From IMG/VR virus record IMGVR_UViG_3300031566_003932: 64,000 bases of DNA. One strand, written 5' to 3'. The notes below the pieces were generated by a model. That model was not told the origin of the DNA and searched no databases. It saw only the letters and a list, made by a program, of their open reading frames with translations. Positions 11,951-43,734 of the stretch are shown piece by piece (position 1 is the stretch's first letter; each line of letters opens with the position of its first letter). The stretch comes from a virus. A program made the position numbers and the translations under genes.

Positions 11951-12433
11951 TCACTCAAACTTCTCCACCCTCTGATCATAAAATGTTACAGCCAATGCGA
12001 ACGCCTGCCACAAATCCTTTTTAAGCCCATAGGTCAAACCAGGACTTTTTTTTGTTCCCGGGGGTCCGAAGCGATCTATAAGGGCTTGTCTGATATTGGA
12101 ATCTTTTGCTCGGGCTGAATTGCAAAGGTGAAGTTTGACTTGTCGGCGGGGTATAAATTCGACATTGTTGTCTAAATTTAAACGAGTCCAAACCTCATAA
12201 AAGCGACCACAGAAAAAAATTGTATCAAACACGCTTTTTCCTACCGGCATCCCATAGGATTCTATTTTTTCAATCGTTATGGTGTGCATATCTTCTAGCG
12301 AACCAAGGCCTGCTAGAATAAGTTCGTTTTCTGCAATATGAGCAAAACGGATTTTATATCCATCCCATCCGATATAGGCGCTTTGCTCAGATCCAGGATC
12401 TACGGCAAGGATAATTTCGGGTTTGTCGGTCAT
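11951..12433 (-). CDS. RuvC-like Holliday junction resolvase
   Basis: ILAVDPGS, IEKIESYGM, DLWQAFALA. Confidence 0.75.
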   Translation of the reverse strand: MTDKPEIILAVDPGSEQSAYIGWDGYKIRFAHIAENELILAGLGSLEDMHTITIEKIESYGMPVGKSVFDTIFFCGRFYEVWTRLNLDNNVEFIPRRQVKLHLCNSARAKDSNIRQALIDRFGPPGTKKSPGLTYGLKKDLWQAFALAVTFYDQRVEKFE

Positions 12434-12564
12434 TTCCCCTCCCTCTCTGCTTTGATATACCCATGAATCCATTCATTCCGGCGCATGTCCCATTCAGGGT
12501 AGAAATTGTCCTTCAAAGATTTGCGCTGAAGACGGGCCTGATAGCCCTGTTCATAAGCGGTCAC
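12430..12564 (-). CDS. Rmf/CrpP-like small protein (44 aa), not in ORF track
   Basis: MTAYEQGYQARLQRKSLKDNFYPEWDMRRNEWIHGYIKAEREGK; both ends overlap neighbours. Confidence 0.5.
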   Translation of the reverse strand: MTAYEQGYQARLQRKSLKDNFYPEWDMRRNEWIHGYIKAEREGK

Positions 12565-12845
12565 TTACCCTCCGGTGGTTTATAGATATGTGGGTTTGGC
12601 CTTATGCTGCGCCATAATTGGTAAAACATTTTGACAAACCAGAAGGGGAGACCATTTTGTACTCGGTGATAGGTTTCAAGTGCGCTTTCGCAATCCCAAC
12701 ATTCATGTCCCCAATCCCTTAATTTCCTTGGGTCGATATGCGGATTCTCTGCCTCATACCGTGCTCGATCGCCACCCCAGGCATGTATCCAATTCCAGCA
12801 AGCCCAGGGTGAACCGCAGTAAGGGCATTTTCGTATTAGAGTCAC
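12561..12845 (-). CDS. Hypothetical Zn-finger protein
   Basis: CPYC and CWDC; GGAGG plus GTG start. Confidence 0.55.
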   Translation of the reverse strand: MTLIRKCPYCGSPWACWNWIHAWGGDRARYEAENPHIDPRKLRDWGHECWDCESALETYHRVQNGLPFWFVKMFYQLWRSIRPNPHIYKPPEGK

Positions 12846-17304: not shown

Positions 17305-18630
17305 ATGAAGGAAGAAACGAAAAGTGCTGTCATCGAATATGATGCGAAGGACGGACAACGGATAGTCCTGACATTCGATCTTATTAGGCGTTATCTCGTC
17401 CAGGGACACCCTGAGTTTGTAACTGTTCAAGAGTTTATGTATTTCATGGGTGTATGTCAGAGTCAGGGCATGAATCCTTACAAACGGGATTGTTACCTTA
17501 TCAAATACACCCAAGGGGATTCAGCGGCGATCATCACCGCCATTGATTTTCTGCGAAGCCGAGCGAAAGCGCAACCGGATTGCAAGGGTTGGAAGGCAGG
17601 GATTATCTTGCAAGTAAACGGCAACGTAGAATACAGGGAAGGTACGTTTCTCCTTGATAACGAGAAGCTGGTTGGTGGTTGGTTCCAGGGCAAACCGGCA
17701 GGTTGGGATGAACCTATTAGGTGGACCGTACCACTAAAGACTTACATTAAACGCAAAAAGGATGGAAGTATTACGCGTTTTTGGCAAGCTGATAATCAAC
17801 CCGGCCAGATAGCCAAAGTCGCTGAATGCCAGGGCTTGAAAAAATGCTGGCCTCAAGAATTCCAGAATCTCTATACGGATGCAGAGATTGCACCAGATGA
17901 TGGCGTGAGAGGTTTGCCGGAGATCCCCGAGCAAACGGGCAAAGAAGTGGACGCTGAATTTGATGCCGATGCACACGAGGAGTTTGACAAGACAATAGGG
18001 CAACTCAAGGCCCTGAACCTCGATCACCTCAATGAGTATGTGACCTTTGCGGCACGAGTGAGCGATAAAACCGTCTATGAACTCAAGCAAGAGGCGATCC
18101 AGCAGTTTGATAACTTCCTTGCTTCTTTTCAGAAATGGGAGGCTAAGAAGTATCCTGGTGAGCAGAAACCCGACTCCTCCGACAAAGATCCGATCCGCGA
18201 GGAGTATATCAGACTAAAGACCGCTGGCTTCTCCACTTGGGTTCACAAGAATCTCGATGCTATCCGAAACATGGAGCAACAGTACCGCGTTGAAATCAAG
18301 GCCAAATGGATGATGCTTTACCCACAGGATACTTACCCCTTGGATAAGCAAGAAAACGCAGCCACGGGGCAGGATGCTCTTTCTGTGGGGGATTCTGAGG
18401 ATGAAACGGAGGGTGAAGAACCAGGAGAAGAGGATCAGGGACTTCCCCCCCCCTCACCGGAAGATGAAAAGGTTCTTTCACTCGTTACCGGCTCACATGC
18501 CGATGTTGCAAACAGGGCTTGCGTACCTTGCCCAGATGGTAATGGCCGATCCCGGTTAGCCAAGCATTGCAAGGAGGAGTGCCCATCGAGGATGGGTTGC
18601 CCGACCTGGAGTGAGTACGATAATCAATGA
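17305..18630 (+). CDS. bet: Bet/RecT-family ssDNA annealing protein with long acidic C-terminal extension
   Basis: CQSQGMNPYKRDCYLIKY, IAKVAECQGLKKCWP. Confidence 0.8.
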   Translation: MKEETKSAVIEYDAKDGQRIVLTFDLIRRYLVQGHPEFVTVQEFMYFMGVCQSQGMNPYKRDCYLIKYTQGDSAAIITAIDFLRSRAKAQPDCKGWKAGIILQVNGNVEYREGTFLLDNEKLVGGWFQGKPAGWDEPIRWTVPLKTYIKRKKDGSITRFWQADNQPGQIAKVAECQGLKKCWPQEFQNLYTDAEIAPDDGVRGLPEIPEQTGKEVDAEFDADAHEEFDKTIGQLKALNLDHLNEYVTFAARVSDKTVYELKQEAIQQFDNFLASFQKWEAKKYPGEQKPDSSDKDPIREEYIRLKTAGFSTWVHKNLDAIRNMEQQYRVEIKAKWMMLYPQDTYPLDKQENAATGQDALSVGDSEDETEGEEPGEEDQGLPPPSPEDEKVLSLVTGSHADVANRACVPCPDGNGRSRLAKHCKEECPSRMGCPTWSEYDNQ

Positions 18631-18791
18631 TCTATCCTGATGAAACCATGATCCAATGCCCCTGGTGCGGATACGAGGACAGCGAAAGCAAGTTTTTACC
18701 TCTACTTGATGATAGATATGAATGCCCTAATCCAAAATGCTACGAGGTATTCCGGCCAAGGGAGGAGATAGAGAAGGAAATAGAACAATAG
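18627..18791 (+). CDS. Small Zn-ribbon protein (54 aa), not in ORF track
   Basis: CPWC and CPNPKC; ATGA overlap with bet stop. Confidence 0.55.
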   Translation: MIYPDETMIQCPWCGYEDSESKFLPLLDDRYECPNPKCYEVFRPREEIEKEIEQ

Positions 18792-18846
18792 ATGGAAAAT
18801 TTTCCATGTATGCAGGCTGTTGGGTGATTTATGTTTAATGAAATAT

Positions 18847-18964
18847 GGGGGCACTGGATAATCCGTGTACAGGATGATACTTGCTGTAATCTAAGCATGA
18901 GTTATGGCGCCCTATGCCTCATGCCGGGGAGATCAGTAGAGGGGTTCAATTCCCTTCACCCCCA
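18847..18964 (+). other. Degenerate tRNA-like element, possible attP core
   Basis: T-arm AGGGG-TTCAATT-CCCTT then CACCCCC-A; CTGTAAT loop upstream; too long and imperfect for a real tRNA. Confidence 0.3.
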
Positions 18965-18973
18965 CCCCGTATC

Positions 18974-19032
18974 ACCCAACAAGGTCAATCCAGCCGACCC
19001 GATAAAACGGGCGGCTGATAACAGCGTTAGCC
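18974..19032 (+). other. Integron attC-like site (59 bp)
   Basis: ACCCAAC...GTTAGCC; inner stem ATC(C)AGCCG(A)CCCG / CGGG-CGGCT-GAT with two unpaired bases. Confidence 0.7.
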
Positions 19033-19050
19033 CAAGAAAGGAGGGAGAAG

Positions 19051-19320
19051 ATGTCTAAACCGAATTGTTATAAATGCAAATACCGAGGGATGATTTCTGG
19101 TGATGCCCATTCTCAATGTAAACACCCCAAAGTAAAGATGCATGAAAATCCTTTCGGGGCATTAGTTGATGTGCTGGAAGGCAAGACTGAAAGTGCTCGA
19201 ATAGAATTAGAAATTAAGGGACATCCCCAGGGTATTCGGTCAGGCTGGTTTATGTGGCCTGCCAATTTTGACCCGACATGGCTTGAAAATTGTAATGGAT
19301 TCGAGGCCAAAGAATCTTGA
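19051..19320 (+). CDS. Cys-rich hypothetical protein
   Basis: CYKC...C; GGAGG SD just after the attC GTT box. Confidence 0.6.
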   Translation: MSKPNCYKCKYRGMISGDAHSQCKHPKVKMHENPFGALVDVLEGKTESARIELEIKGHPQGIRSGWFMWPANFDPTWLENCNGFEAKES

Positions 19321-19345
19321 CCTCCGCCCCTGCAATATGTGATAT
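19317..19345 (+). promoter_or_regulatory. Putative integrase promoter
   Basis: TTGACC, 17 nt, TGATAT. Confidence 0.45.
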
Positions 19346-19376
19346 GCTTTCCCTTGAACAAAGAGGGAGGCTGACC

Positions 19377-20435
19377 ATGCCAGCGTACATCGATGGGAGG
19401 GGGTATATCCGCGTCACTGTACCGGGATTCGACAAGACATTGACTTCCTGGCGCGGGCAACGGCTCAAGGACTTATCATCTGAAGATATCCAAAAACTCT
19501 GCGATTATTTTAATCAGGCCATGATGCTAGGTAACTATGAAGCGGTAAAAACGTGGTTCCCCGGGGAACGCGCAAAGCACCTCGTCAAGAAACTAGCCTA
19601 TAAATGGCTTGAAGCTGAGAACAAGAAAGAATCCACCATTAAGATTGAGCAGCGGGATCTCGAAACGTATATCCTGCCACAGATCGGAGATATGGCAATC
19701 CAGGAAGTCACAAGACAAGACTTCTATTGGATTCGGGAAAGGTGGGGTGACATTCACATGGCTCGGAGAGTGAGGGCAGAGTGTCAAGCCCTTATGACCT
19801 GGGCATGGCGAGAAGGCATTACAGAGCGTCAGGTATTTGTTCCGACTATCAAGGTTGACAAGAAGCCTACCCCCTATATCGAGTTAAAGGATCGCTGGGG
19901 GATATGGGAGCTGGTAGATGATGAAAGGTGCCGGGCCCCCCTGGTCCTCTCTATTGAAATGGGGCTACGGATAGGTGAGATTGTGGCCCTGCAGCGTGAT
20001 TGCGTTGATATCGGAAGGGATCTGCTCAGGATCGTGCGCCATGTCTCCGGAACTCGAGTAATCCCAATGCGGAAAGCAGGGGATGAGTACCGGATACCCA
20101 TTGACATGCCGTACAGCCAGAGGGCAAAGGCCGTACTCATAGAGCGCAAGGCAGACATAGGATCCCCATGGTTATTCCACGGTGTCAAGGGGAACCACCT
20201 ACAGGTTGACCGGGTGAGCAAGGCATTTAAACGAGCTGCCCGGACCTATGGATTGCCTCAGGCGCATTTACACCAATGCAGACATAGCTTTGCTCAGGAT
20301 CGGGTAGCTGAGGGCTATCACCTCGAGGAAGTGCAAGCCTTGTTAGGGCATGGGAATAGGGGGACCACTGAGAAGTACAAGGGACATGGGGTACGACACA
20401 TGAGAAAATTAGAAGTTATGGGAGGTAGAGAGTGA
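19377..20435 (+). CDS. int: Tyrosine recombinase (integrase)
   Basis: GLRIGE, HQCRHSFA, LLGH, TEKY catalytic motifs; GGAGG SD. Confidence 0.9.
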   Translation: MPAYIDGRGYIRVTVPGFDKTLTSWRGQRLKDLSSEDIQKLCDYFNQAMMLGNYEAVKTWFPGERAKHLVKKLAYKWLEAENKKESTIKIEQRDLETYILPQIGDMAIQEVTRQDFYWIRERWGDIHMARRVRAECQALMTWAWREGITERQVFVPTIKVDKKPTPYIELKDRWGIWELVDDERCRAPLVLSIEMGLRIGEIVALQRDCVDIGRDLLRIVRHVSGTRVIPMRKAGDEYRIPIDMPYSQRAKAVLIERKADIGSPWLFHGVKGNHLQVDRVSKAFKRAARTYGLPQAHLHQCRHSFAQDRVAEGYHLEEVQALLGHGNRGTTEKYKGHGVRHMRKLEVMGGRE

Positions 20436-20635
20436 TGGAAATTGATTTTATTCCCGTAAAAGCGAATTTTGCTCAAGCTCCTGAATGGGAGGACGCGATA
20501 GAAGCCGCAATCAAAGTGTGGCTTGAGCCATCAAATCTTGGAGATAGGCGAAAGGTTATCAGACTATTTAATGCTATGTTAAATAAAGCACCTCTGGCAA
20601 GTTCTGAATCCAAGGGGGAAGGAGGTAGGGAGTGA
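20432..20635 (+). CDS. Hypothetical protein
   Basis: Coupled to int stop. Confidence 0.45.
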   Translation: MMEIDFIPVKANFAQAPEWEDAIEAAIKVWLEPSNLGDRRKVIRLFNAMLNKAPLASSESKGEGGRE

Positions 20636-20886
20636 TGACATATCCACAACGCGTTAGGATAATAGACGTTACAGGAATGGAACTTCTTCCAGGTATTGAG
20701 GGCAAAACACCAGAAGATAGTATTCCCCATATAGGTAAAGAAGGATTAGCTGAAAAGGTAGGTAGACTTGTTCGCATTACTTTAGATGATGGTAATATTA
20801 TTTGGGGGCATGAATGTTGGTGGAAGCCACTCGCCAACCCCCCGGAACAACCTGAATCCGTTGAGGGGGAAGGAGGTACGGAGTAA
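20632..20886 (+). CDS. Hypothetical protein
   Basis: GGAGG SD; overlapping boundaries. Confidence 0.55.
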   Translation: MMTYPQRVRIIDVTGMELLPGIEGKTPEDSIPHIGKEGLAEKVGRLVRITLDDGNIIWGHECWWKPLANPPEQPESVEGEGGTE

Positions 20887-21722
20887 TGGCAACCAAAATT
20901 GAATGGGCTGAAGAATCATGGAATCCCGTGACAGGCTGTACTCCTATTTCTGAGGGGTGTGTCCATTGTTATGCCAAAAGAATGGCCCAGCGCCTCAAGG
21001 GACGGTATGGGTATCCCGAGGATGAGCCCTTTAAGGTGACAGTCCATCCCGATCGACTTGACCAACCCTTGAAATGGAAGAAATCGAGGATGATCTTTGT
21101 TTGCAGCATGGGGGATTTGTTTCATTCTGCGGTGTTATTTGATTGGCTATTCAAAATTCTTTGCGTGATTGAAAATTCGCCTGAGCATATCTTTCTCATC
21201 CTAACAAAACGACCAGCCCACATGCTCGTTCAATTAGAAAAAATGTTGCACTACTGGGATAAAGCAGACCAACAGATATTTCCTAATCTCTGGCTCGGTG
21301 TCACCGCCGAAAACCAGCAACGGGCAGATGAGCGCATACCTATCCTCTTGCAGATCCCCGCAGCGAAACGGTTTGTGAGCATAGAGCCGATGCTGGGGCC
21401 GGTGGATATTTCATCCGCTTTACCTATTGAAACCATTGGCGGCGTTGAAATGGAAACCTGGTTAGACTGGGTAATCCTCGGCGGCGAATCGGGTCCCGGC
21501 GCACGGCCCCTGCATCCCGATTGGGCTCGATCTGTCAGGGATCAATGCCAAGCAGCAGGTGTGCCGTTTTTCTTTAAGCAGCATTCTGCGGCAGACAAGA
21601 TTATATATCATTTTCGTCGCCGTCTGCTCGATGGCCGGGAATGGAATGAGAGGCCAATCGGCAAACTCTCGGAACAACCGCTTGAATCCCGCGCCCAGCA
21701 TGGTCAACCTAAACAGGAGTAG
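20886..21722 (+). CDS. DUF5131 (Gp37/Gp68-like) protein
   Basis: TKIEW...WNPVTGCTPISEGCVHCYA, SMGDLFH, FVSIEPMLG, WVILGGESG. Confidence 0.9.
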   Translation: MATKIEWAEESWNPVTGCTPISEGCVHCYAKRMAQRLKGRYGYPEDEPFKVTVHPDRLDQPLKWKKSRMIFVCSMGDLFHSAVLFDWLFKILCVIENSPEHIFLILTKRPAHMLVQLEKMLHYWDKADQQIFPNLWLGVTAENQQRADERIPILLQIPAAKRFVSIEPMLGPVDISSALPIETIGGVEMETWLDWVILGGESGPGARPLHPDWARSVRDQCQAAGVPFFFKQHSAADKIIYHFRRRLLDGREWNERPIGKLSEQPLESRAQHGQPKQE

Positions 21723-43607: not shown

Positions 43608-43631
43608 TTTCCTTGTCCTCCATCGGCCAAC

Positions 43632-43674
43632 AAAAAAGGGAGCAATCTAGTGGTTCTGGCACCAGACTGCCCCC
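43632..43674 (-). terminator. Intrinsic terminator-like hairpin before the protease gene
   Basis: GGGGGCAGTCTGGTG / CACTAGATTGCTCCC (15 bp with G-U pairs) then T6. Confidence 0.6.
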
Positions 43675-43734
43675 TAAAATGTTCTGCTCTAAGATTCGCG
43701 GGTCCTAGAGTGGCCTTACTTTATTTAACGTGAA

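Follow-up and report, generated by a model that had tools for sequence, protein, structure and literature searches.

A phage-borne attC site that probably closes a gene cassette in an attI-like landing site

How does a temperate phage come to carry a single integron-type attC site in its early operon, and what is this site a part of? In the window (the whole stretch of 64,000 nucleotides that was analysed), one 44,370-bp circular tailed-phage genome is followed by a second, exact copy of its first 19.6 kb; the genome has genes for portal, terminase, capsid, tape measure and replication. The phage is temperate. Its early operon comprises, in this order, an exonuclease, RecT (best matches ~35%), a 54-aa zinc-ribbon ORF, the attC/cassette site, an 89-aa ORF and a tyrosine integrase (Table 1). 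Two independent assemblies (L142 and L143) carry an identical cassette. A sequence-only reading of the locus had recognised the attC and missed both the landing site and the left boundary of the cassette. We consider it likely that the attC is the end of one gene cassette, that this cassette occupies an attI-like landing site between the recombination genes and the integrase, and that the phage borrows IntI.

Table 1 Features of the early region around the attC site (window coordinates)
Feature	Position	Strand	Remarks
RecT/Bet-like ssDNA annealing protein	17305..18630	+	Pfam RecT E 4e-26; PHROGs
54-aa zinc-ribbon-like ORF	18627..18791	+	last resident gene before landing site; called in ENA contig
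14-bp palindrome of attI-like landing site	18793..18806		conserved, fixed distance from crossover
Left half of attI-like simple site	18806..18819	+	candidate degenerate L box (18806-18812), 6-bp spacer, crossover G
Integrated gene cassette, 207 bp	18820..19026	+	canonical orientation
75-aa ORF reading through attC	18831..19058	+	doubtful gene; uncalled in ENA annotation
tRNA/tmRNA-like 3' end	18940..18966	+	T arm, acceptor strand, ACC; inside cassette
attC site	18974..19032	+	bottom strand predicted recombinogenic; crossover after 19026
attC R'' box	18974-18980		ends AAC
attC L'' box	18987-18994		6-nt spacer from R''; unpaired C at 18990
attC second unpaired base	18997		A
attC loop			6 nt
attC L' box	19014-19020
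attC R' box	19026-19032		5-nt spacer from L'; starts GTT
89-aa resident phage ORF	19051..19320	+	SD; directly after attC; ATG at 19051
Phage tyrosine integrase, not IntI	19377..20435	+	Pfam Phage_integrase and Phage_int_M

The attC site and the cassette it closes

The hairpin at 18974-19032 is a genuine attC, and the boxes, inner stem and extrahelical bases that the sequence-only reading had described hold in both coordinates and anatomy. Its two extrahelical bases are G and T on the bottom strand, which agrees with the rule of a G in L'' and a T 6–8 nt away; the extrahelical-base feature of attC sites was defined in PMC2727003. The fold is better than that of 200/200 shuffled sequences on both strands (z −3.56 and −3.66). 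The covariance-model check proposed in the sequence-only reading was carried out with a purpose-built model (R1) from 43 attC sites that a generic scan found outside the window-derived search pattern, the independence of which is partial because they come from loci near pattern matches, and gave 32.4 bits (E 7.9e-6). This is the only significant match in the 44,370-bp genome, the runner-up reaching 11.2 bits. Over the 43 phage attCs the stem pairs covary (0.411 vs 0.126 shuffled, in an alignment fitted to the model). A second hairpin at 43625-43687, with AAC/GTT flanks in a late intergenic gap, passed the heuristic, failed the covariance model and is perhaps a terminator; the remaining AAC...GTT matches in the phage genome are due to chance. 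No full-length match to the attC was found in the plasmids or annotated phages searched.

The deviations from consensus noted earlier, in the spacers and in R', can both be accounted for. The 6/5 spacer geometry is uncommon (3/112 sites), the usual spacing being 5 nt between R'' and L'' and 5–6 nt between L' and R'. The same geometry occurs in a 51/53-identical attC within the shuffled array of a sister phage (L115). The window attC also has one mismatch in the L stem and, given this and the 6-nt R''–L'' spacer, may recombine poorly. R' mismatches R'' because R' beyond the G is downstream DNA, and R'' pairs instead with 18818-18828, its true partner: the R'' region (18971-18981) is complementary in 11/11 positions to this core site 155 bp upstream. 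Such complementarity implies that the attC closes an integrated cassette whose own core was split on insertion. When the cassette circle is rejoined in silico, a complete attC stem of −20.6 kcal/mol is obtained, vs −12.6 kcal/mol at the integrated junction. The orientation of the cassette is canonical, with the extra C of L'' on the strand of the transcribed direction.

We compared R'' with cassette starts for 23 cassettes, from the window and six related arrays. R'' agrees with the start of its own cassette at 85/92 variable positions (16 cassettes perfect) and with the start of the next cassette at 45/84 (2 perfect), a comparison in which some selection bias is possible as the 23 boundaries were hand-picked from a candidate list. 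The largest own-start match in 100,000 permutations was 69, vs the observed 85/92. Judged from these sequence matches, the attC is the closing site of one integrated 207-bp cassette, not the free attC of a giant phage cassette.

The cassette contains no gene called in the ENA annotation. Its 75-aa ORF has no homologue and no Pfam, PHROG or NCBIfam match, and a search for homologues of the cassette body found none. The T-arm motif is the only canonical one on either strand of the genome, and the segment around it resembles the 3' ends of one tmRNA and one tRNA-Leu. Rfam tmRNA scores the cassette at 14.3 bits (E 0.005), far under the gathering score of 47, and ARAGORN at default settings finds no complete tRNA or tmRNA gene; just the 3' end is convincing. 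A tRNA-Ser called on the minus strand under relaxed ARAGORN settings was rejected as poorly paired. From its sequence, the cargo is possibly non-coding. In the related locus L127 (5616-5820), a cassette carries a tRNA-like gene of 71 nt, the anticodon loop of which has 8 nt, and behind it a long attC; this cassette scores 32.9 bits against Rfam tRNA, over the gathering score.

Downstream of the attC, the SD and the ORF reported earlier are indeed present. We do not count this 89-aa ORF as a cassette gene, as it has no attC behind it and eight homologues in other phages lack a nearby attC. Just 5' of the integrase (19314-19376) lie a promoter-like sequence and a small hairpin with an SD, similar in relatives, which suggests that the integrase may be under separate control. 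Further downstream, a 28-nt purine-rich repeat occurs three times at successive gene junctions (20413-20440, 20613-20640 and 20864-20891).

A conserved landing site and different cassettes in related phages

The 27 bp preceding the crossover are conserved and comprise the palindrome, a 7-bp box whose bottom strand resembles a degenerate core site, and a spacer of 6 bp. The crossover lies at G|TT, and homology between sisters stops exactly after 18819. The palindrome occurs at fixed spacing in the window, L115, L134, L125, L133, L160, L145, L147, L158 and L148; variants are found in L289, L293 and L208. It is absent in L126 and L127, which have a different upstream sequence at the landing region; in L127 (5300-5375) tandem 25-bp repeats replace it, with a copy number unlike that of L126. 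The landing site as a whole is absent in the relatives L120, L132 and L294. An AT dinucleotide within the site is invariant, though the search pattern did not demand one. The palindrome is a possible accessory site for IntI or a host factor, and the box at 18806-18812 would act as the L box, 6 bp from the crossover vs 5 bp in attI1 by our reading of the attI1 L box in PMC4792948. attI sites are recognised by their cognate integrases (PMC4792948), and we infer that the landing motif could be a true cognate attI. We found no description of it in the literature.

A search for the palindrome plus crossover returned 20 viral loci, eight of which have attC arrays directly downstream (six identified by the covariance model, L063 separately and L158 by eye); at a ninth the sequence ends three bases past the landing site. 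With a looser pattern lacking the left half of the palindrome, attC sites were found in 1/78 loci, and that one has a near-palindrome. The motif stands at the head of attC arrays also in phages whose flanking genes are unrelated, and the cassette genes can lie on either strand. In L145, L147/L158 and L148 the flanks are unrelated to those of the window phage, and the cassette genes are inverted and follow the local operon; L147 and L158 share a flank and differ in the first cassette. Occurring in unrelated flanks and in either orientation, the landing site thus behaves as a portable module.

Relatives of the window phage carry different cassettes at the same slot. The closest sister, L115, with an integrase N-terminus 97% identical, is homologous to the window as far as the crossover at 18819, beyond which it has six cassettes. 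L134, with the same flank as the window phage, has an array at the same position, and in both L115 and L134 a relative of the 54-aa zinc-ribbon ORF precedes the landing site. Arrays at this position are also present in L125, L126, L127, L133, L289 and L293, with integrase homologues at 48–70% identity. In total, seven related loci sharing the integrase family and one more hold 1–7 different cassettes at the slot, and the first cassette differs in every array. The rank of a cassette also varies: identical or related ones reappear elsewhere in the order, as with rank 5 of L115 and rank 2 of L134 (124/124 identical). As to cargo, one array has a DNA methylase-like gene in its first cassette; in another array, a Lar restriction-alleviation gene comes after the final attC. 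The earlier suggestion that the phage captures cassettes is borne out by the 207-bp cassette and by these differing arrays. Its companion proposal of a relic of a captured cassette is too modest, as the cassette is intact and the conserved landing site is refilled differently in each relative.

Several observations from the related contigs are recorded here in their own right. L291 joins an attC to an L289 cassette exactly at the crossover, with ~5 shared bases and a possible origin in assembly. The ends of this 5,892-bp contig overlap by 192 bp, with a new junction at the attC crossover; L291 is possibly a 5.7-kb attC × attC excision circle with the phage integrase gene. L290 (5100-5200) and L291 (5030-5190) share a cassette gene and differ in the attC stem behind it, with the switch inside the L'' box. 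Cassettes in L289 (at 3117), L290 and L291 have a GAT core with matching ATC in R'', not GTT/AAC. Second attC clusters lie in the early regions of L126 (10504-10831), L133 (4206 and 12385-12698) and L289 (8473), and a phage contig (L028:409-3299) carries at least seven small cassettes bounded by attCs of the same family. L127 (9980-12519) and L129 (3875-4864) contain a reverse transcriptase and an Avd-like gene, that is, a diversity-generating retroelement in a sister phage.

Source of the integrase and competing explanations

The phage integrase scores 28.5 bits against TIGR02249 (cut-off 265), and its alignment lacks the IntI insertion, as the sequence-only reading had remarked. It is the sole tyrosine recombinase of the genome, and no IntI-like gene was found elsewhere in it. 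IntI must therefore act in trans, and we infer that it is supplied from elsewhere. Bacterial genomes with similar attCs, which are not identified as hosts, encode IntI. In the mechanism that we propose, IntI would be provided by the host chromosome or by a co-resident IntI-carrying element, would fold the bottom strand of the attC of a circular cassette and would join it to the landing site, itself double-stranded, by recombination at G|TT. Position 1 would receive each new cassette, and older ones would shift down or leave by attC × attC recombination, so that the window phage would now hold one cassette and relatives up to seven. No dedicated Pc promoter was found, promoter-like matches being at chance level, and the slot lies inside the early operon; transcription of this operon from the RecT side would read into the slot and its cassettes, the cargo of which may benefit the phage. 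In its working, the element resembles the cassette-receiving half of an integron and is not a complete one, as an intI gene with the IntI insertion is absent.

Alternatively, a single insertion event at a secondary (attG) site could have left a SALIN, by now a passive relic, with the sister arrays grown solely by attC × attC recombination. Minimal GWT sites do serve as insertion targets of IntI and SALINs are frequent (10.1101/2022.09.11.507474), the geometry of the window attC is slightly off-consensus, and no cognate intI was found beside the landing motif in five viral contigs, in the plasmids searched or in the literature; the motif is also absent from 301 Planctomycetota genomes and from four IntI-adjacent regions read by eye. 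A minimal attG, however, predicts no 27-bp motif in phages with non-homologous flanks and in opposite orientation, and the relatives, each with a different first cassette, keep the 27 bp ahead of the crossover at constant spacing. We regard this explanation as unlikely. That the adjacent phage tyrosine integrase itself moves the cassettes, as a non-IntI integron, is highly improbable: the array lies directly upstream of the integrase in eight loci, but the enzyme lacks the insertion that folded attC sites require, the sites have both extrahelical bases and are of the canonical IntI type, the integrase-bearing relatives L120 and L132 have no arrays, and five landing-motif contigs, which are fragments, show no such integrase.

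The tRNA-like 3' end could also be an attP core, the hairpin serving as terminator or stabiliser for a restored host tRNA or tmRNA. A T-arm motif upstream of a co-oriented integrase is the usual layout of tRNA-targeting elements, and here the only such motif of the genome lies 410 bp upstream of the co-oriented integrase. It sits, however, within a removable cassette, no U-tract follows the hairpin, and L127 carries its near-complete tRNA-like gene as an ordinary cassette. An attP role is also made improbable by the closest sister, L115, which has no T arm in 27.6 kb. We rate it as very unlikely, and as it concerns the cargo, the evidence for the cassette is unaffected. We could not locate an attP in the phage genome; in L126 (8269-8344) and L127 (7816-7891) a complete tRNA-Gly(TCC) lies 10 bp after the integrase, and this region is a candidate attP of their lineage. 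The sequence-only reading had favoured yet another role, in which IntI of the host could use the attC to place the entire circular phage in an integron like a giant cassette; this would open a path to lysogeny. Passages of PMC9892861 indicate that any attC-bearing replicon, phage attCs included, can cointegrate at attI1 in a suicide assay, and such insertion is possible as a side reaction. As a function of this site we give it scarcely any credence, because in a circular cassette R'' and R' of a single site should match each other, whereas here R'' matches the upstream core and the attC is the recombined junction of the 207-bp cassette. Relatives moreover vary from 0 to 7 in the number of their attCs, as well as in attC identity, with up to seven in tandem in sisters, and the phage encodes its own lysogeny integrase.

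Comparison with known systems

We return to the reading in which a borrowed IntI fills a landing site with cassettes. Phage attC sites and CALINs have been published, and phage attCs are substrates of IntI1 in vivo according to the passages covered of PMC9892861 (Qi 2023). Like the window phage, the phage CALINs described there have IntI-type attCs and cassettes without intI, and host IntI is presumed. That survey is described as requiring at least two attCs in NCBI complete genomes, and a single site like that of the window would be missed; two-site screens overlook single-attC phages in general. With one attC the window phage falls outside the CALIN class (at least two attCs without intI), to which its sisters L115, L133, L126, L127 and L289 belong. 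The passages covered of PMC9892861 name no conserved phage landing site and contain no comparison of cassette turnover between relatives.

SALINs are single attC sites that by definition have no other att site nearby (Loot et al., 10.1101/2022.09.11.507474). The window phage shares with SALIN/attG insertions a single attC without intI and insertion at a GWT triplet (GAT in one sister), and differs in the attI-like site present 155 bp upstream and in the reuse, within its family, of the 27-bp conserved site across lineages. Clusters of attC sites in phages are commonly taken for remnants acquired from hosts. If the conserved landing site with turnover at position 1 and reordering of cassettes holds true, phages would keep a working cassette platform and borrow the enzyme alone, which would let them swap accessory early genes site-specifically; the landing site would be a short, concrete attI candidate. 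More tentatively, and with less than even confidence, we suggest that sediment phages may carry a portable integrase-free integron platform, in which one attI-type module sits in either orientation, the local operon reads the cargo, host or helper-phage IntI acts, and a phage-specific pool supplies small cassettes, some of them non-coding tRNA/tmRNA mimics like that of the window.

Compared with canonical integrons (class 1 and sedentary chromosomal), the phage slot has in common the G|TT crossover, a candidate degenerate inverted L-like box, predicted insertion at position 1, the canonical gene orientation and an extended R-stem pairing of 9–11 nt (PMC2727003). It differs from them in having no intI and no dedicated Pc found, a 6-bp spacer, an upstream 14-bp palindrome, and a cargo of small phage-type ORFs and tRNA-like sequences. 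Phage-borne attC arrays having already been published (Qi 2023), what is new here is the conserved, portable landing site together with the evidence of turnover.
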